Virus record (IMG/VR): IMGVR_UViG_2690316318_000023
Span: 1 to 27,264 of that record
Source: a virus
Lineage: Duplodnaviria > Heunggongvirae > Uroviricota > Caudoviricetes
Direction: 5' to 3' (one strand)
Length of the DNA: 27,264 nucleotides
Shown: positions 3,506-16,438 of the stretch, piece by piece
Numbering within the stretch: the stretch's first letter is position 1
Layout: each line of letters begins with the position of its first letter
The notes under the pieces: model-generated
Seen by the model: the letters and a program-made list of their open reading frames with translations, nothing else
Databases searched by the model: none
Told to the model about the DNA's origin: nothing
Program-made: the position numbers and the translations under genes

Positions 3506-5611
3506 TTATTGAGCTTCTTTTTGTGATGCCTGTGCGACTCTGGTGAGCGATTGTGTGACCGTACTGATCGCTCTGTCATATGCTGTGCTACCTTTTGGCG
3601 TATTTGCCAGACGTAACAAGGCATTTCGTATAACAGGGCTTTCGTATGCCTTCGCTGCTCCGCCTACGGCACCAGCAGCAGGAACAACAAACGCAGCCGT
3701 TTTTAGCATCCCCGCTAATACTGCTGCGTTTATGATGCCACCACCAACTAACAATCCATAAAGCTGCTGACCATTTAAGTTTTGAACGTTCGCTTTTGCC
3801 GCGTGTCTTGTATCGTTGAGGTATTTAATAACGCCGTCCAGTTCCTTTCCATGTACGCCTTTAAAGAAAGTTGCTGATTGCTTCCTGTTCCGGTGTAACG
3901 CATTAATAAACTTCTCAACACTGATATTTCCAGACGGATCAGTCGCCTTATCTACAGCATTCTGAACTATGGCTGCTCGTGCGTTTTGCCTACCATTGTC
4001 ATCCAGAAGCCTGTAAAGCTGAGAACGTTCTGATGGGCTTTGGCTAAAAACGAGTTTTGTTACATCCTCAGGCGTGGCCTTGCCGCTGGCTATTGCCTTT
4101 TGAACGCGCGTTCTTCCCATCATGTCATTGAATTTAGACCATGAGCGATCAACCCTTGCCATATTAATGGCTTCGTCTGCTCCAAGATTTTTGGCTACGG
4201 CTTTTTTCATATCCGCCGTATATGCCTTGTAGATAATATCGCTGGCTTTCTGGAGCGTATCTTTATCAACAGTGTCAGATGACGCCATAAATCGCTTTCG
4301 AAGATCGGTTCTGTTTTCCCTCGCCAGACGCAGGTCATTTGGTCCGCTGGTGATATCGTCTTTAAATTGCTGCAAGACTTTTACCGCGGCTCTATCCTGA
4401 GATTTGCCCGGGCGGCTTAACACGGCAATCTGATTGTCGATAGCTTTTACCGTGTTTGAGAGATCGACAGGGGTATCCCCCATAGCGTCAATTATGCGGT
4501 TATATCGCTTTCCTGCTGCCTCAATGAATTTTTGTTGCCCTTTAGTCGCAGATTCATAAAGCTGTTTATCAGAAATGCCACCCAGACCATCGCTAAATGT
4601 TCTGACTAAATTTTCTCGTGCTTGTTGTTGATTCAGCCGATTCTTACCGGTTCCAAAAAAAGGAACTCTTTCGCCTAATGTCTGAGCCTGACTCTGCATA
4701 AAGGTTTTATCTTTCAGCATGTCACTGGTCATTAACGGCAGATTTCTTTCCGATGCAAAGTCGACAGCAGCCTTTGCTTCAGGCGACATATCACCACGAA
4801 CAGCCCTCGAAACCGCACTCGCTGTATTTTCCAGCCCCTTACCAATACCACCAATGCCAGCAGAAATTACCGTTTGTAACGGATCAATATCTTCTCCACC
4901 AGCAAGGCTGGTGGCTCCCTGTAGTGCTAAATCTGTAGCTGCTGATTTTCCTATGGCACCAAGCACCGTTCCAGCCCTGCCCGCTGGTGTAAACGCCAAC
5001 GCATTAGCAAGAAACGAGGTCAGGTCTTGCGGTGATAAACCCGGCTTGTTCAGGGCATAATCACCTGATGGCAGAGAAACGATAGTATTCCCCTTCTCAT
5101 CCTGCCTTAATGTCGCCCCCATTCCCTGAAGAATCTTTTCCTGAGACGCGTCAGAGCCGAAAAGTTGAGACCATCCAGCCTTTAGGGCATCCATGCTTAG
5201 TGAGTTCAATTCTGGGGCAGAGGCGACATTTTGCAGTCTCTCCATCTCTGGAGTCATTCGGCTTTCGCCTGTTATAGCATCGCGCATCGCAGCCCCAAGA
5301 CTGGCTCCCTGTTCTGCTGAACGCTCAAGCCCCTCTCTTTGCTGAGTAGCTAACTTTGCATACCCTGACGCAAGAGAATTATCAGATGATGTATGTTGAA
5401 TATTTTGAGTTGCTGATTGGGATCGGTCTATTTCATTCGTTGATGGTAGTGGATAGGCAGCATAAAAAGCCTGCTTAGCCTGCTCTACACTTTCTCCGGC
5501 TTGCGGGGCCACGACTTCATTGAAGTATTGCTCCTGAGCCTGCGCTTTTTGTTCTGGTGCTAACGCCTGATACTGTGGAGAGGCGATAACATCTTTCCAT
5601 GCTTTAGCCAT
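3506..5611 (-). CDS. Hypothetical protein (701 aa), distal gene of the three-gene cargo operon; Ala/Gln/Ser-rich with a C-terminal hydrophobic Gly/Ala-rich segment
   Basis: ATG at 5611-5609 overlaps the upstream stop (TAATG) and is preceded by GGGGTGA. No Walker A or nuclease motif seen by eye. C-terminal LLVGGGIINAAVLAGMLKTAAFVVPAAGAVGGAA looks membrane-associating. Confidence 0.8.
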   Translation of the reverse strand: MAKAWKDVIASPQYQALAPEQKAQAQEQYFNEVVAPQAGESVEQAKQAFYAAYPLPSTNEIDRSQSATQNIQHTSSDNSLASGYAKLATQQREGLERSAEQGASLGAAMRDAITGESRMTPEMERLQNVASAPELNSLSMDALKAGWSQLFGSDASQEKILQGMGATLRQDEKGNTIVSLPSGDYALNKPGLSPQDLTSFLANALAFTPAGRAGTVLGAIGKSAATDLALQGATSLAGGEDIDPLQTVISAGIGGIGKGLENTASAVSRAVRGDMSPEAKAAVDFASERNLPLMTSDMLKDKTFMQSQAQTLGERVPFFGTGKNRLNQQQARENLVRTFSDGLGGISDKQLYESATKGQQKFIEAAGKRYNRIIDAMGDTPVDLSNTVKAIDNQIAVLSRPGKSQDRAAVKVLQQFKDDITSGPNDLRLARENRTDLRKRFMASSDTVDKDTLQKASDIIYKAYTADMKKAVAKNLGADEAINMARVDRSWSKFNDMMGRTRVQKAIASGKATPEDVTKLVFSQSPSERSQLYRLLDDNGRQNARAAIVQNAVDKATDPSGNISVEKFINALHRNRKQSATFFKGVHGKELDGVIKYLNDTRHAAKANVQNLNGQQLYGLLVGGGIINAAVLAGMLKTAAFVVPAAGAVGGAAKAYESPVIRNALLRLANTPKGSTAYDRAISTVTQSLTRVAQASQKEAQ

Positions 5612-7077
5612 TAATCACCCCATAGTGAAGAAAAGTTACTGCTGGCTGCTGGCTGTGATACCTGCTCAGATTGCGGCAATGTCTGCGACGAAGAAGCAGT
5701 TCCTCTGTCAACTGCTGAAATAACCCGCAAAGCATCATAAGTTCGACCAGAAGCAGCTTTCAGCGAATTGAACTGGTTTTCCATCTTCCGGCGCTTGGTA
5801 TCAATGGTTTTTGTGGAATCACCAGGCTGAGGGAAATACATTTGATAATATTTGGACATTTCAGCTGGTAGGATAGATGCCCCTGTTTCCTGACGGAGTA
5901 TTGCCATTATTGCGTCATTAGCATTAACAACGTATTGCTGCTCTGCTGGGCTGAGCGTTAAGTTAGCCAGCGTCCCATTACCCAAAGCATTATTAATGAT
6001 CGCCACTCGCTGTGGGCTAAGCTGGTCTTTCAGTGTATCTATTGAATCAAGAGCATCCCTAACCCTGTATGCAAATCCAGCAGCTTTTTTAGCCCCTTCT
6101 GGCGACTTTTCCATGATCTTTTGGGCTGTTGGCAAAGCTATTGGACGAAACCCATCTCCAGATATTGGCTGGTTTAGTTTTCCCTGCTCTTCACTTCCGT
6201 CTGTGTAGTATTTTGTGACAGTGCCATCATCGTTTTCTCTAACACTCATTAATTTTTTGGCGTTTGTATTAATTCCAGCCGCTGCCGCAAATGCCGCCGC
6301 CCCCTCTGGATCCGCCTTTAACATTTGCGCGTACTGATTGTAATTCTGCATTGCTGCTGTTGGTGCATATGCTGACGTTAACGCATTTGCTCGGCTAATA
6401 TCCTGCCCTCTCGCCTGAAGTGCTTCGCCAGCCTGATTGCTGCGGATTGTCTCTGCCAACTTGCCACGCTCAATATCCCGACCTTCCATTTGATCTTTGA
6501 TATCGAAATACTTCTCATGACCGAGAGAAAACAGCGCCAGATTACCTGCGAAATGCTGGAAGCCCTGCGGGTCATTAACCTGCATTTCAGCAATAGTTTC
6601 TGGAGGGATACCTAAACGACGCATCTCCTGCTCATTATCCATCATGAACCTGCCAAATGCGCCCTGACCAAGCGATGAGGCTACCTGTGCTTTGAGCGCC
6701 AGATTGCCATAATCATCCCTTTGAGCATCATCGACATAACTCATCCCTTTACGGACTTCCTCAAACTCTTCTGGGAATGCTGTAATAAGATTACGCATCT
6801 GCTCCCTGTCACCGGACGCATAAGCATCTGCATAACCTTTCTGGAATGCCGCTTTACGCTCCTGCTGTTGCTGCTGCTTATAAATATCAGCAACGCCAGC
6901 CAGACCACGAAGACCTGTCAGAGCAACGTTATTTGCACCTGAGCGAGCCAGTTCATTGTTTTCGCGGATCAGACCAAGCGTTGCGTTAATGTCGCTTGCC
7001 TTTGGCGCATTCTCGTTTTGCGCACCAATGCCAGCCAGAAAACCACCAGAATTAATACCCTGTTGCCACGTAGCCAT
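5611..7077 (-). CDS. Hypothetical protein (about 488 aa from ATG 7077; ORF open to GTG 7089), middle gene of the three-gene cargo operon
   Basis: Long ORF, translationally coupled to the 701-aa gene. Gln/Ala-rich (QQQQQERKAAFQ), no recognisable enzymatic motif. Confidence 0.8.
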   Translation of the reverse strand: MATWQQGINSGGFLAGIGAQNENAPKASDINATLGLIRENNELARSGANNVALTGLRGLAGVADIYKQQQQQERKAAFQKGYADAYASGDREQMRNLITAFPEEFEEVRKGMSYVDDAQRDDYGNLALKAQVASSLGQGAFGRFMMDNEQEMRRLGIPPETIAEMQVNDPQGFQHFAGNLALFSLGHEKYFDIKDQMEGRDIERGKLAETIRSNQAGEALQARGQDISRANALTSAYAPTAAMQNYNQYAQMLKADPEGAAAFAAAAGINTNAKKLMSVRENDDGTVTKYYTDGSEEQGKLNQPISGDGFRPIALPTAQKIMEKSPEGAKKAAGFAYRVRDALDSIDTLKDQLSPQRVAIINNALGNGTLANLTLSPAEQQYVVNANDAIMAILRQETGASILPAEMSKYYQMYFPQPGDSTKTIDTKRRKMENQFNSLKAASGRTYDALRVISAVDRGTASSSQTLPQSEQVSQPAASSNFSSLWGD

Positions 7078-7081
7078 TGAT

Positions 7082-7255
7082 TTACCCACGTCCAGTTAAA
7101 GTGTAAGCCAGCGCCTTATCCATTAATCCCCGAGCAATTTCATGGATCGTTGGCGCAACTCCTACCTCTGATTTTTTACGCTGCTCCTCCTGAATTTTCT
7201 TTATCGCTTCCATTTGCTTCTCACTTATCAATACTGGCTTTACTGAAATAGCCAT
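7082..7255 (-). CDS. Small hypothetical protein (57 aa), first gene of the three-gene cargo operon; possible small DNA-binding or regulatory protein
   Basis: ATG at 7255 preceded by AAGGGGG (4-5 nt spacer); its stop lies 2 nt before the next gene's ATG. Translation: MAISVKPVLISEKQMEAIKKIQEEQRKKSEVGVAPTIHEIARGLMDKALAYTLTGRG. Confidence 0.5.
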   Translation of the reverse strand: MAISVKPVLISEKQMEAIKKIQEEQRKKSEVGVAPTIHEIARGLMDKALAYTLTGRG

Positions 7256-10608: not shown

Positions 10609-11211
10609 TTAGTGCGTCACTGGTGCTTCTGGGATGCCGTTTTCGTTTAGTTCGGCAATAAAGCTGTTGTGAAGATCGGCAAGCACTTCTCGCCCAAACG
10701 AAGTGAGTGTTCCCTGTTCGACATCGAACATGTTGCTGTAAAAAATGATGGCATTCTTTGTTCCGACATCAACACCATATTTCTCGATCATTGCGCCCTC
10801 AATGTTGTTTGCCATAGCGAGGCGCTCTGCTACTGGATACAGCGGCATGGCGACGATGCCATTGGAATAAACAGAAACCACGGAATGATTGCCACTGTCA
10901 TCAATAATGCTGACGGTGCCGTTTTCCTTTCTCATTTCATTGATGAATGCTGTTGCTATCAGCCAGCGCCACATAATCACGTGATGCTGTGATGTGTAAT
11001 CGAAATATCCCTGGTTGCCGCCACTGGCAATAGCGAGATGTATAAACATGCCTTCATCTGGTTTATCGTCATAATCCCCGGCATCCAGACGATTTACGGC
11101 ATCAATATATGAGACGGCCTCAACGCGTTCTGTCATGCCATCGTTGCTGCGGTACATGATGTTTACGCCGTCAGGCGTTGCTTCTGCATGGAAGGTTAAG
11201 AAATTATTCAT
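10609..11211 (-). CDS. Hypothetical protein (about 200 aa from ATG 11211), immediately upstream of the primase
   Basis: ORF extends to 11316 in the track, but the ATG at 11211 overlaps the upstream stop (ATGAATAA) and is the likely start. No recognisable motif. Confidence 0.6.
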   Translation of the reverse strand: MNNFLTFHAEATPDGVNIMYRSNDGMTERVEAVSYIDAVNRLDAGDYDDKPDEGMFIHLAIASGGNQGYFDYTSQHHVIMWRWLIATAFINEMRKENGTVSIIDDSGNHSVVSVYSNGIVAMPLYPVAERLAMANNIEGAMIEKYGVDVGTKNAIIFYSNMFDVEQGTLTSFGREVLADLHNSFIAELNENGIPEAPVTH

Positions 11212-11425
11212 GTTTCGCCTCGCCTGAATGATTCTGTAACTCATATTTGCCCAACAATTCGTCCGCTTCCTGAATAGCTTCTGGTACGCCATTGAGCAGT
11301 GACATAACCGCGCCAATCATTAACTTGTCTCTGTTGCTGGGGCTGGCCCCTTCAAGCCAGAACCCTAAAACAGTCTGAACCTGTTCGATGCGACATTGCG
11401 CTTCAATGAGCTGGATGTTGGTCAT
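11204..11425 (-). CDS. Small hypothetical protein (73 aa)
   Basis: ATG preceded by GGAGAG; overlaps neighbours in operon fashion. Confidence 0.55.
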   Translation of the reverse strand: MTNIQLIEAQCRIEQVQTVLGFWLEGASPSNRDKLMIGAVMSLLNGVPEAIQEADELLGKYELQNHSGEAKHE

Positions 11426-11685
11426 TTCGCACTCTCCACATCGATTAAACTGATATCTATCAGGGAGGTAACTTTTTGTAGCCAGCTATTGATTACTGTC
11501 GCCTGTTCCCCTCCCACCGAGGGAACAATCTCATTCATCACATGAACCAGACCTGTGCGCGCTCTGGTAAGCCGTTCAGTCGCGCAATCTGCGAGAGTGA
11601 ATGTGTCTGGATATGGCTCTTCTCTCCCCAGCAATGATTCAATTTCCAGCTCACACGGATGACGATAAATTAAGTTGATATTCAT
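11422..11685 (-). CDS. Small hypothetical protein (87 aa)
   Basis: ATG preceded by GGGGG; start overlaps the upstream stop (ATGA). Confidence 0.55.
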   Translation of the reverse strand: MNINLIYRHPCELEIESLLGREEPYPDTFTLADCATERLTRARTGLVHVMNEIVPSVGGEQATVINSWLQKVTSLIDISLIDVESAK

Positions 11686-11876
11686 TTTTCACCCCCAAGA
11701 ATTACCAGCTCTGCACGGGCATCGTTAACCAAAGATGAGCACGCTTTAATCGCATCCACGACATCAGCAGCGTCCATTTCTTCAGCCGAAAGACTGACAG
11801 CAACCAGGACAGCCGCTACTTGCTCAATTAATTGAAGTGCTGACGTAAGGCGAGGGGTATTAATTGAGTTATTCAT
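11682..11876 (-). CDS. Small hypothetical protein (64 aa from ATG 11876)
   Basis: GGGGG Shine-Dalgarno 6 nt before the ATG at 11876. The track ORF extends to 11933 but has no ribosome-binding site there. Confidence 0.45.
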   Translation of the reverse strand: MNNSINTPRLTSALQLIEQVAAVLVAVSLSAEEMDAADVVDAIKACSSLVNDARAELVILGGEK

Positions 11877-12936
11877 TGGTTGCCCCCGTTTTTCCTGGCA
11901 TTTGTCCACCTTCCAGCAGGAAATGAACGTCACGAACGGCGAGATCCAATATCGCGAGTAACGCCTTCAGCCTTTCGTCTCGTGAGGGAGAGTTGCTCAC
12001 CAGAATGTCGTTAATCACTTCTGTCAGTGTGATGATCTGGCTTGTGCGTTCGAGGGGATCCATATGCACATCGTAGGTTTTAATCATGTGCCACCTCCAT
12101 GCGGATACGACCAGCAAAAAAGCAGACGTGATCGCGCACCAGAGAACGGCGAGCATCGCGTTCAGACTCGGCAGCAATATGATGAATTTTGGCGGTAATT
12201 GTCGGGCAATCGCGGCGAACTGCGGCGATAATCCAGATAAATTGCGGTTTTTGGGTAGGGGTAGTAGCCAGCATGTGGCAGCCTCCTTCAGATAGCAGGT
12301 TACGCTACCACCGGAAACGCCAATTTCGCTGGTGGTAGCCCAGACAGGGTTGGCGTAACCGGCTCTGAAGGATACCGGCGCTTCCGAAGAAGCCCCCGCC
12401 TGAGCCACCATTGATTGACAAAGGCGCTGGATTATACACCAACGCCCAAAAAATGGGTGAGTCAGACCTACGACATAAAAAAAGACGCTCGGCGCGTCAT
12501 ATGTCGCCTTCAGAATTTTCAGGACGCCAATCCCGGCACCCGTTTTATGAGGTGCCTTATAACCATAAACCGTGTTGCCGCATAACGGCAAGCTCTTTTT
12601 TATGGACTCCGAAAACTCAGTATTGGAAGCACCAGATGCACAATACATCGCGCTCATTTCGTTAACGTCGCGCGTATGGACGAAGGTTTTTGTGGAGTCA
12701 CTACGCGAGCAGAGAAAGCCATCTACGACCAGAAATTCTCTGGCGCAGCCGCTGACCTTCTCAACGCTAACACCATCGACCGTAATTTCTGACATAGTTA
12801 AGGCATCCGCTCCTACCACCAGAAAATGATAAACTTTGCTTGTATCTGCTGTATTAATGCCAGACTTTGCTGTCATATTGCTGGATTTTGGTGACATACC
12901 AGCCAGTGAAAATATCTTCTTCTGGACGGTTAGCAT
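11869..12936 (-). CDS. ORF of uncertain structure (355 codons open); N-terminal part looks like a real protein, C-terminal part overlaps alternative small genes
   Basis: ATG at 12936 has a GGAGG Shine-Dalgarno. The frame is open to 11869, but strong GGAGG-ATG sites also occur at 12274 (other frame, 64 aa) and 12087 (same frame, 72 aa), so the real gene boundaries are unclear. Confidence 0.35.
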
Positions 12937-13112
12937 TTGTTAACCTCCGCGAACTCCTTCATGAAGCGCGCCAGCGGTTGTACGCATGGCGATTGATACC
13001 CGTCGCGATAAAACGTCACTCGGTTGTGAGACACGCTTTCGACAGTAACGAGTGCTCCGTGGGCATCTTTGTAGCGTTTTTGAGGTTGTGGTGTTCCTGT
13101 TGGCTTAGACAT
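12930..13112 (-). CDS. Small hypothetical protein (about 60 aa from ATG 13112)
   Basis: GGAGG Shine-Dalgarno 6 nt upstream of ATG 13112, which overlaps the end of the upstream gene. Confidence 0.45.
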   Translation of the reverse strand: MSKPTGTPQPQKRYKDAHGALVTVESVSHNRVTFYRDGYQSPCVQPLARFMKEFAEVNKC

Positions 13113-15012: not shown

Positions 15013-16227
15013 TCATGCGTGTTTTTCAAACACCATATGCACCACATTTCCGCCATGCTCGAGAGAATCCATATAGTCGGCATACCATTGAAGCATCTCC
15101 CGCCTTCCATCCAGATATTGCGCATGGTTGTATGTGCCACGAATTGAGTTCTTATCAACGTGAGCGAGCTGCGTTTCTATCCACGCGGTGTTATAGCCCT
15201 GCTCATGCAAAATCGTACTCATAGTGTGCCGGAACCCATGACCAGTTACACGTCCAGCGTAGCCAATGCGCTTAAACACTTGGTTTATGCTGGCCTCACT
15301 CATTGTTTTCCTTGGATCATTGCGCCCGGGAAACATAAGAGGGTAATTGCCTGTTATTTCTCTAATCTTCCCAATAAGCGAAAGAGCCTGCTCAGACAAT
15401 GGCACAATATGAGGCCGCCGCATTTTCATACGTGAAGCGGGTATCTCCCAGAGAGCCTTGTTGAAATCAATTTCATCCCATAATGCGCCACGTAGTTCGC
15501 CAGTCCGCAAGCCTGTGATAATCAGTAGACGAGCCGCCATAACAACCAATGCGCTTCCTGAGTAACTGGACAATGCCTTGAAAAAATCAGGTAATTCTTT
15601 GGCTGTAAGGAAAGGGTAATGATTAGATTCATGGCCTTGCATCGCGCTAGTAAGGTCTGGTGCAGGGTTATACTCTGCGCGACCAGTGACTATTGCATAG
15701 CGGAAAACTTCCCCGCACCGCTGCCTCACTTTTTTGGCTTTTTCTGTAGCACCGCGCCCCTCGATGCGCCGCAGCACATTCAGAAGTTCAAGTGGTTTGA
15801 TTTCGGCGATTGGTTTTTTGCCAATGTAAGGGAACACATCTTTGTTGAAGGCTTCGAGGATGTCTGAAGCATAACCAGCAGACCATTTTTTTAATTTGCT
15901 GCTGTGCCACTCAAGGGCAATATCTTTGAAGGTGTTGTTTAACTGCGTTTCCCGGGCAATCTTTTCCTCTCGTTTCGCTTCCATCGGATCGATACCACCA
16001 GCGATACCTCTTTTCGCATCTTCACGTTTTGCCCGAGCATCGGCTAGAGTAACCTCAGGATACACACCTAGTGCCAATAGCTTCTCTTTACCAGCTACAC
16101 GATATTTAAGTCGCCAGTATTTACCTCCATTAGGTTTTACCAAGAGATACAAACCGCCACCATCGGCCAGCTTGTAAGCCTTCTCTTTTGGCTTGGCTGT
16201 GTCTATTTGACGGGCATTGAGTTTCAC
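15013..16227 (-). CDS. int: P4-type tyrosine site-specific integrase (404 aa)
   Basis: N-terminus MKLNARQIDTAKPKEKAYKLADGGGLYLLVKPNGGKYWRLKYR and C-terminal HGFRHT...LAH...Y catalytic region. GTG start with GGAGG upstream. Adjacent to the tRNA fragment. Confidence 0.95.
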   Translation of the reverse strand: MKLNARQIDTAKPKEKAYKLADGGGLYLLVKPNGGKYWRLKYRVAGKEKLLALGVYPEVTLADARAKREDAKRGIAGGIDPMEAKREEKIARETQLNNTFKDIALEWHSSKLKKWSAGYASDILEAFNKDVFPYIGKKPIAEIKPLELLNVLRRIEGRGATEKAKKVRQRCGEVFRYAIVTGRAEYNPAPDLTSAMQGHESNHYPFLTAKELPDFFKALSSYSGSALVVMAARLLIITGLRTGELRGALWDEIDFNKALWEIPASRMKMRRPHIVPLSEQALSLIGKIREITGNYPLMFPGRNDPRKTMSEASINQVFKRIGYAGRVTGHGFRHTMSTILHEQGYNTAWIETQLAHVDKNSIRGTYNHAQYLDGRREMLQWYADYMDSLEHGGNVVHMVFEKHA

Positions 16228-16392: not shown

Positions 16393-16438
16393 TGGTGCCG
16401 ATAATAGGAGTCGAACCTACGACCTTCGCATTACGAAT
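16393..16438 (-). pseudogene. tRNA-Thr 3' fragment (46 nt: anticodon loop through CCA end), att-core repeat beside the integrase; not an intact tRNA
   Basis: The minus strand reads ...TTCGTAATGCGAAGGTCGTAGGTTCGACTCCTATTATCGGCACCA (T-loop GGTTCGACTCC, acceptor stem, CCA), matching my recollection of E. coli thrW. The upstream sequence cannot form the 5' acceptor/D arm. Confidence 0.6.

Follow-up and report, generated by a model that had tools for sequence, protein, structure and literature searches.

A P4-type RNA immunity region with a predicted eta-like read-through frame overlapping kil out of register in an EcCIMP1-like phage satellite

An EcCIMP1-like island, a phage satellite of the P4/PICI type, has its RNA-based immunity region at 11869-12936 of the window (the whole 27,264 nt stretch analyzed, from the Caudoviricetes record IMGVR_UViG_2690316318_000023). 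On the minus strand, the order of elements is a promoter-like site, an isrK/SeqA-like leader with a terminator, a C4/CI-like RNA, kil, and a 72 amino acid gene coupled to kil. A 355-codon open frame runs across them. We estimate a probability of about 0.7 for the best explanation of the whole, a P4-type immunity region with an eta-like read-through frame. The system itself is known; the variant in which the long frame is +1 to kil was previously undescribed.

The long frame (11869-12936, minus strand) opens at ATG 12936, with GGAGG (12948-12944) 7 nt ahead of it; the ORF list and the sequence both confirm this part of the original prediction. PGAP annotates the 355 amino acid product as an ash family protein (WP_021563224.1). 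This start codon overlaps the stop (TAA, 12932-12930) of its upstream neighbor, a DUF4222 gene (12930-13112, minus strand), in a junction of the translational-coupling type. Of the 134 unique cores among the relatives, 132 have such a frame across the RNAs, and its median open length is 288 codons compared with 45 in the other two frames. The length of the frame exceeds chance.

Two RNA genes were found within the frame, both on the minus strand. The isrK / P4 SeqA-like leader RNA (12478-12555) matches Rfam RF01394 with 67.8 bits (gathering score 50), and the C4 / P4 CI-like antisense immunity RNA (12328-12415) matches RF01695 with 79.9 bits (gathering score 45). The homology of IsrK and SeqA has been stated before (PMC4825925). 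The leader includes the C4 target sites a1 (TTGGCGT, 12530-12524) and b1 (TCTGAAGG, 12514-12507), and a terminator scan placed an intrinsic terminator in it, a hairpin at 12498-12484 followed by a T run. P4 and 18 of 19 genome loci have both RNAs ahead of kil; the other locus has C4 only.

We also predict an internal promoter. This candidate constitutive promoter (12562-12591, minus strand), the positional homologue of P4 PLE, consists of the -35 hexamer TTGCCG (12591-12586), an 18-nt spacer and the -10 hexamer TATGGT (12567-12562), with the 5′ end of isrK 7 nt further on. With 8 of 12 consensus positions it fell under the 9/12 threshold of the scan and was recovered only through conservation across loci: both hexamers and an upstream A-tract are kept in 18 diverse loci, P4 among them, with a variable spacer.

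The C4-like RNA carries a loop b′ (TCCTTCAGA, 12372-12364) and a segment a′ (ACGCCAA, 12356-12350). A second set of target sites (12282-12323, minus strand) was identified downstream by complementarity to C4: a2 (TTGGCGT, 12323-12317) and b2 (TCTGAAGGA, 12292-12284), the latter overlapping the kil Shine-Dalgarno GGAGG (12286-12282). Loop b′ has a 9-nt complement in the kil Shine-Dalgarno region and an 8-nt complement in isrK, and a′ is complementary over 7 nt to TTGGCGT in isrK and just past C4. The 134 related loci have 31 loop variants, and the pairing of the C4 loop with its targets covaries among them. On average, 9.0 nt pair between a loop and the RBS of its own locus, and 4.3 nt in non-cognate combinations; the corresponding values for the upstream target in isrK are 7.0 and 5.0 nt. 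In 26 diverse sequences, 15 of the 27 pairs in the three-helix fold show compensatory double changes, and almost none are broken.

The first translated gene past the immunity RNA encodes 64 amino acids (12080-12274, minus strand). It lies in a different frame from the long ORF, with its GGAGG 7 nt upstream of ATG 12274. The product matches NCBIfam NF033153 (phage_ICD_like) with 71.7 bits (cut-off 25) and aligns with P4 Kil; by sequence, it is a homologue of P4 Kil and P1 Icd and a predicted member of this family of cell-division inhibitors or killing peptides. Codon-position diversity in its own frame is 0.11/0.10/0.34, with the third position about 3-fold above positions 1 and 2. The first ~70 nt of kil have the highest C/G ratio of the region (2.2), and this C-rich, G-poor 5′ end has a composition compatible with a Rho loading site.

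The 72 amino acid gene (11869-12087, minus strand; WP_000598361.1) shares the frame of the long ORF. Its ATG 12087 overlaps the kil stop (ATGATTAA), its GGAGG (12098-12094) lies 6 nt upstream within the 3′ end of kil, and its own stop is overlapped by ATG 11876, which starts the next small gene. No match to the protein was found in Pfam, NCBIfam or PHROG. Diverged protein homologues occur at the same position in other genera (L012, L013, L017). The two internal GGAGG-ATG sites had been pointed out from the letters alone, and both are borne out, as is the idea of nested or overlapping small genes typical of a P4-like regulatory region: one is the Kil/Icd homologue and the other a gene with homologues. 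The C-terminal third of the long frame had been described as off-frame in appearance. This holds for residues ~222-283, which are the +1 reading of kil, and not for the whole third, since a real small gene accounts for the last 72 residues.

The register of the long frame relative to kil divides the family. Of the 134 unique cores, 62 have it at +1 to kil, the register of the window, and 71, P4 included, have it in frame. The +1 frame of kil is free of stops in 61 of 62 out-of-register cores and in 15 of 71 in-frame cores (Fisher p = 4e-22; the synonymous-codon null for the comparison is 0.57 and 0.21), and in 15 of 15 against 6 of 20 at the level of 10%-divergence clusters (p = 2e-5); the loci are phylogenetically related and the immunity module recombines, so these open-frame statistics overstate the number of independent events, an effect that the cluster-level tests reduce and do not remove. 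At least 15 kil clusters, drawn from several genera, have the +1 register, and the same layout was seen in loci of Klebsiella, Pluralibacter, Leclercia and Symbiopectobacterium.

The original prediction had also raised a recent frameshift fusion or read error, with an indel near 12275-12300, and programmed frameshifting. The latter would join the upstream frame to kil. We consider either event very improbable. The distance from C4 to kil does differ by 1 nt (137 vs 138) from that in P4 and in a locus with identical C4 (L011), and three relatives that are nearly identical (L105, L106, L132) have kil in frame. However, copies of the region at least 98% identical occur with the same layout in many complete E. 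coli genomes, the spread of the +1 layout over clusters and genera speaks against a recent or artificial origin, and kil has its own strong SD-ATG, which is a conserved C4 target. There is no conserved slippery heptamer or stimulatory element at the junction: none was found from -150 to +150, and the sole in-frame heptamer, TTTTTTG at +153, belongs to the conserved Phe-Phe codons of kil.

Selection on the long frame has kept it open and has not kept its amino acid sequence. Across the 134-core family, no codon-position signature was found in the long frame outside the real genes (kil and the 72 amino acid gene). Diversity is flat over the three codon positions in the isrK stretch (0.23/0.23/0.24) and the C4 stretch (0.32/0.30/0.32), and is 0.41/0.51/0.37 in the spacer stretch and 0.43/0.42/0.46 in the N-terminal part (from a protein-guided alignment of very divergent sequences). 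There may be weak protein-level constraint in the N-terminal part, because two sub-segments show a slight third-position excess within the close clade that resembles the window (0.03/0.03/0.08 and 0.03/0.01/0.04). The original prediction had named a single conserved 355 amino acid protein as the finding that would speak against nested genes; the homologues share no such protein, because they keep the openness of the frame and not the protein sequence.

These profiles bear on whether the 355 amino acid product is a true, sequence-dependent Ash/Eta regulator in a Bro/antirepressor network, with the RNA genes merely embedded in its gene. The annotations favor such a protein: besides the ash family label of PGAP, the long ORF matches Pfam PF10554 (Phage_ASH) with 117.5 bits (cut-off 26) over residues 124-232 and model positions 1-106 of 107, and residues 109-233 hit PHROG "transcriptional repressor/regulator" families. 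Both the conservation and the translational coupling of the frame fit a protein as well, and P4 eta has been counted as a translated gene of the Bro network (PMC10111431); the slight third-position excess in the two N-terminal sub-segments also points this way. We nevertheless think a sequence-dependent regulator unlikely. In nucleotides, the Phage_ASH match is 12567-12241, starting at the -10 box and ending at codon 11 of kil, and no family match extends past the promoter on one side or the RBS on the other, with isrK and C4 between them. This stretch is conserved because of RNA structure and pairing and has no codon periodicity. No third-position excess, the mark of purifying selection on a protein, was seen on the Phage_ASH stretch in the isrK, spacer or C4 profiles; this stretch evolves as RNA and DNA signals, unlike a protein domain. 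The N-terminal 123 amino acids have no match in Pfam or PHROGs, are antisense to a terminase fragment (described below), and are not conserved between clades. Residues ~222-283 merely read kil at +1, and the C-terminus of the supposed protein is not conserved because in half of the family the frame ends as Kil itself. An RNA locus, translated conceptually, appears to be the source of Pfam Phage_ASH and several PHROG "transcriptional repressor" families.

If the protein sequence does not matter, the long frame could also be an untranslated by-product, with only the RNAs, kil and the 72 amino acid gene at work and the absence of stops inherited together with the RNA sequence. The missing protein-level signature agrees with this, and the PGAP annotation of other genomes has three entries here, for an ash pseudogene, an Icd-like gene and a hypothetical protein. 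The register of the frame relative to C4 is identical in nearly all loci, so openness is partly inherited with the RNA. Several features make a pure by-product improbable, about as much so as a sequence-dependent regulator. Openness runs for hundreds of codons past the conserved RNAs, into unrelated N-terminal sequences. The start of the frame overlaps or abuts the stop of the upstream ORF (within 12 nt) and has a Shine-Dalgarno in 119 of 125 loci. N-terminal length differences among close relatives are multiples of 3 (39 and 36 nt), and the +1 frame of kil has been cleared of stops in the out-of-register cores, in contrast to the others.

We return to the reading as an immunity region with an eta-like read-through frame, for which we propose the following mechanism. 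For transcription starts, RNA processing, Rho dependence and long-frame translation, we infer from P4, P1 and Gifsy-1. As in P4 and P1, the C4-like RNA would come from transcripts that start at the internal promoter in the resting state. This RNA would pair with a1/b1 in the leader and with a2/b2 at the kil RBS, and the pairing would block translation of kil and trigger premature termination, so that the downstream replication genes would be off. The 355-codon frame, as the counterpart of P4 eta, would be used when the upstream promoter transcribes the operon. Ribosomes coupled from the DUF4222 gene would then traverse the promoter, the isrK terminator, C4, the targets and kil, and their passage may prevent the RNA from folding and pairing and may exclude Rho, leaving downstream expression insensitive to immunity. 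Because the long frame is +1 to kil, these read-through ribosomes would make no Kil and would stop at the stop of the 72 amino acid gene.

The closest known system is the immunity region of P4 (PLE-seqA-cI/CI RNA-seqC-kil nested in eta), for which the eta/kil/CI/seqA model has been summarized (PMC10111431, PMC4825925) and in which immunity-dependent termination is averted when eta, transcribed from an upstream promoter, is translated. The element order is that of the window. In both, the long frame starts above the internal promoter beside the preceding gene and covers the RNAs, and a gene that overlaps the kil stop comes after kil; the P4 record labels the homologous ORF "put. ash gene / cI gene product". 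The two differ in that eta of P4 ends in kil, in the same frame, whereas the frame in the window gives kil a second, +1 reading and ends at the stop of the gene after kil. The N-terminal part of the window frame is unrelated to that of P4 and contains the terminase fragment, the downstream gene is not epsilon, and the element is PICI-like and without sid, delta or psu.

The immI region of P1 and P7 (c4-icd-ant) is also similar. It has a C4 family RNA with a′ and b′ and double targets, a1b1 upstream and a2b2 at the icd RBS, and an Icd-family peptide is encoded first with translationally coupled genes downstream. Unlike immI, the window has no antirepressor gene after kil; an AntA/B gene is upstream. 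To our knowledge, a long read-through frame has not been described for P1 immI. The isrK-orf45-anrP-isrJ region of Gifsy-1 (Salmonella) likewise has an IsrK-family leader with its own terminator, followed by a C4-like RNA, and its downstream genes differ from those of the window. In Gifsy-1, the C4-like RNA STnc1160 is processed, translation of a small ORF gates the downstream genes, and the short IsrK RNA activates the read-through mRNA in trans (PMC4825925).

About a quarter of complete E. coli genomes have a match to the region, and the copies in E. coli number ~1400. The PGAP records give either the 355 amino acid ash protein or a pseudogene with two small genes, and neither marks the two RNA genes, which are the functional core of the locus. 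The original prediction had the small genes; the RNA genes, their targets, the internal promoter, the terminator and the terminase fragment were absent from it. The family-wide data support a frame that is kept for the act of translation, by which RNA-mediated termination is overridden, an idea with experimental proof so far only for P4, and they reveal a second architecture in which the read-through frame overlaps kil out of register. If this is true, kil would be read twice, once as Kil from a C4-controlled RBS and once as a ribosome track whose product is irrelevant, and nature would offer here a clear example of selection on translatability and not on a protein.

The rest of the island includes an integrase, an alpA-type HTH gene, AntA/B, DUF4222, "ash", small genes, a TOPRIM/DUF927 primase and P22-type ejection proteins. 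By architecture, it resembles EcCIMP1, an E. coli PICI mobilized by the P22-like phage Kapi1 (PMC11773190), which has an integrase, AlpA, an antirepressor, an "Ash family protein" and a primase, with homologues of DUF2824 and DNA-transfer proteins of P22-like phages after the primase.

Opposite codons ~50-85 of the long frame, the plus strand carries part of a small terminase gene of the P22 type (12682-12788), 88% identical to nt 268-374 of P22 gene 3. It starts at a pac-like 22-mer (12682-12703) that matches at 16 of 22 positions, the next ~50 nt are nearly identical to P22 gene 3, and the pac feature of AF527608 lies under the match. The fragment is at the same position in 37 related loci. 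A literature search found no report of a satellite-borne P22 pac site. Kapi1 was considered as the source and rejected: its small terminase is shorter and of a different type from the P22 gp3-type fragment in the window, the loci contain no Kapi1 terS fragment, and the only sequence that Kapi1 shares with the window is 272 nt of a DNA-transfer gene.

We tentatively combine the two novel features, and doubt that both parts hold together: half of the family would have moved the immunity-bypass frame to the +1 frame of kil and purged its stops, and the antisense pac copy would be an EcCIMP1-like packaging signal for P22-like helpers. The fragment offers a testable hypothesis for the packaging of widespread E. 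coli islands by P22-like phages. A tRNA search found no complete tRNA in the window, and the 3′ part only of a tRNA-Thr adjoins the integrase. A 38 amino acid ORF (12676-12792, plus strand) lies over the terminase fragment and is called by PGAP in some records.

The minus strand of the window is open for 355 codons without interruption (11869-12936), starting at an ATG (12936) that has a GGAGG 7 nt upstream and shares the sequence ATGCTAA with the TAA stop of the DUF4222 gene before it. Inside this long frame lie a 64-codon ORF in a different frame (12080-12274; ATG 12274, GGAGG 7 nt upstream) and a 72-codon ORF that shares the long frame (11869-12087; ATG 12087, GGAGG 6 nt upstream); the start of the latter overlaps the stop of the former (ATGATTAA). 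The original prediction located the 355-codon frame, both internal ATGs and the GGAGG sites correctly, as re-checking confirmed. The Trp/Cys/Leu/Pro-rich stretch that it read as off-frame translation is present, and corresponds exactly to the 64-codon ORF read at +1. Its suggestion of a frameshift error or programmed frameshifting is highly improbable, because the layout is widespread and there is no slippery site at the junction. The observation is real and is explained by an already known system, the P4/P1-type RNA immunity region.

Two Rfam families score above their gathering score within the long ORF and on its strand, a C4 antisense RNA (12328-12415, 79.9 bits) and isrK (12478-12555, 67.8 bits). 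The isrK match has a terminator-like hairpin at its 3′ end, followed by a T run. Upstream is a promoter-like site, an A-tract and TTGCCG separated by 18 nt from TATGGT, with the isrK 5′ end 7 nt beyond; the hexamers are conserved across loci, including P4, and the spacer is variable. The loop of the C4 hairpin, TCCTTCAGA (12372-12364), has two complements: TCTGAAGGA (12292-12284), overlapping the Shine-Dalgarno of the 64-codon ORF, and TCTGAAGG within isrK (12514-12507). A second C4 segment, ACGCCAA (12356-12350), is complementary to TTGGCGT at two sites, one in isrK (12530-12524) and one directly after C4 (12323-12317).

The 64-aa protein matches NCBIfam phage_ICD_like (71.7 bits) and P4 Kil is clearly homologous to it, with a shared AAVRR... 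stretch; we refer to its gene as kil. Related loci gathered with a Kil probe (19 from species-representative genomes, 80 from IMG/VR and 80 from metagenomes) gave 134 unique cores, with 31 distinct C4 loop sequences. The loops covary with their targets: the mean match is 9.0 nt to the locus's own kil RBS and 4.3 nt for non-cognate pairs, and 7.0 nt to its own leader and 5.0 nt for non-cognate pairs. Of the 27 pairs in the C4 fold, 15 show compensatory double changes and almost none is broken. In every locus some gene start overlaps the kil stop, preceded by a conserved GGAGGTGG, and homologues of the 72-aa protein, though diverged, are encoded at this position in three other genera. Farther along, small genes of ~64-87 aa (11204-11933, minus strand) each have a start that overlaps the preceding stop at an ATGA-type junction, without Pfam or NCBIfam matches except a sub-threshold TY-Chap1 for 11682-11933.

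The Kil genes of several related loci (L003, L105, L106, L122, L132) are near-identical to that of the window (94-100%), and the loop/target specificities before them differ (CCTTCAGA, CCTTGTAC, CTATACAG, CCTTTGTG, CCTTGATT), so the immunity-specificity cassette is swapped by recombination independently of kil.

In 132 of the 134 cores a single frame bridges the whole distance between the isrK 5′ end and the kil ATG, with a median of 288 codons versus 45 for the other two frames. Of the 125 cores that could be assessed, 119 have its start codon at most 12 nt from the stop of an upstream ORF, usually in an ATGA or ATGnnTAA overlap with a Shine-Dalgarno 5′ of it, and N-terminal length differences among close relatives are multiples of three. 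There are two architectures. In the in-frame class (71 cores, including P4) the long frame is the kil frame and terminates at the kil stop; in the +1 class (62 cores, including the window) it is +1 relative to kil. Most +1 loci merge it with the downstream gene, which the overlap of its ATG with the kil stop places in the +1 frame, and a few end it just beyond kil. Class switches are seen between near-identical relatives and arise where the distance from C4 to the kil ATG differs by 1 nt. The +1 frame of kil is stop-free in 61/62 of the +1 class versus 15/71 of the in-frame class (Fisher p = 4e-22), or 15/15 versus 6/20 with kil clustered at 10% divergence (p = 2e-5). A synonymous-codon null gives 0.57 and 0.21, respectively, so the in-frame class behaves neutrally in this frame, and stops are depleted in the +1 class. 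This out-of-register read-through frame, kept stop-free, is undescribed so far. That the long frame is an untranslated by-product of the RNA locus is improbable beside this depletion and coupling.

The long frame is selected to be open and coupled, without constraint at the protein level. Nucleotide diversity at codon positions 1/2/3 is 0.11/0.10/0.34 for kil in its own frame; in the long frame it is 0.23/0.23/0.24 across isrK, 0.32/0.30/0.32 across C4 and 0.43/0.42/0.46 for the N-terminal part in the largest clade. N-terminal sequences are wholly different from clade to clade. Two N-terminal sub-segments have a small third-position excess in the close window-like clade and may be under weak constraint. 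A sequence-dependent Ash protein is a reading we consider unlikely.

Among 5426 complete E. coli genomes, 1393 have a match to this region (479 of them over at least 80% of the 1.6 kb), and its database annotation is inconsistent. The NCBI pipeline calls a single 355-aa "ash family protein" in certain genomes; in others it calls a partial ash pseudogene and annotates the 64-aa ORF as a "host cell division inhibitor Icd-like protein" and the 72-aa ORF as a hypothetical protein. The sole Pfam match of the 355-aa translation, Phage_ASH (PF10554), covers residues 124-232 only (12567-12241), a stretch bounded by the internal promoter's -10 box and codon 11 of kil. PHROG "repressor/regulator" families match these residues too; the N-terminal 123 aa have no PHROG match. 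PHROGs 6928, 3960, 821 and 995 and PF10554 match solely the translated promoter-isrK-C4-RBS stretch, and what they model is probably, at least partly, a conserved RNA locus and not a protein domain.

P4 has the same isrK and C4 pair under an ORF named "put. ash gene" or "cI gene product (137 aa)" in GenBank records, and the C-terminal 65 aa of that ORF are Kil. IsrK and P4 SeqA are structural homologues, and the pairing partners of CI RNA are seqA and seqC (PMC4825925). In P4, CI lies within eta, kil is a truncated eta, and eta is coupled to an upstream alpA homologue, its translation from the late promoter preventing termination; the Rfam C4 and isrK models pick up CI and seqA relatives in Gram-negative PICIs (PMC10111431). 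By analogy with P4, P1 and Gifsy-1, the internal promoter of the resting island (a P4/PICI-type satellite) would feed a C4-like RNA that prevents use of the kil RBS and leads to premature termination. Within the region the C/G ratio peaks over the first ~70 nt of kil, as would fit Rho loading on RNA that is not being translated. Upon induction, upstream transcription would bring DUF4222-coupled ribosomes across the leader terminator, C4 and the target sites, and their passage along the long frame would override immunity; in the +1 architecture it would yield no Kil. We put the probability of the whole explanation, a P4/P1-type RNA immunity region with a translated read-through frame, at roughly 70%.

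A side feature of the locus is a fragment of a P22-type small terminase gene (gene 3, nt 268-374; 88% identity) at 12682-12788, sense on the plus strand and antisense to the N-terminal part of the long frame. The match begins at the annotated 22-bp pac site: 16 of 22 positions match in the pac-like 22-mer (12682-12703) and the next ~50 nt are almost identical to P22. Thirty-seven related loci, every one in the window-like clade, carry the fragment at this position, and it varies mainly at would-be terS third codon positions. It may have been copied from a P22-like helper as a packaging signal. Homologues of P22 ejection/injectosome proteins are likewise encoded in the island (3506-7089, minus strand, and small ORFs to ~7800; Pfam Inj_translocase 1.3e-83; PHROG "DNA transfer protein"); in a collinear E. 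coli genome the island has a DUF2824 gene as well. The island shares gene order and the ejection-protein module with EcCIMP1, a PICI that the P22-like phage Kapi1 mobilises; how EcCIMP1 is packaged proved hard for its authors to characterise (PMC11773190). Over a 272-nt stretch (6809-7077) the identity to the Kapi1 DNA transfer protein gene is 86%. The Kapi1 small terminase is of a different type from the fragment and no fragment of it was found in these related loci, so a helper-matched pac mimic is a lead and not a result.

Beside the integrase gene (15013-16227, minus strand), ~16393-16438 holds only the 3′ part of a tRNA-Thr (a thrW-type attachment core), and ARAGORN found no complete tRNA in the window. 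Collinearity with E. coli NZ_AP021933 ends at 16438, so beyond this point the window consists of different DNA, which may be a second island sitting in tandem at this tRNA site. Outside the island is a full-length Rfam IS009 match (20911-21109, minus strand, 184.9 bits).
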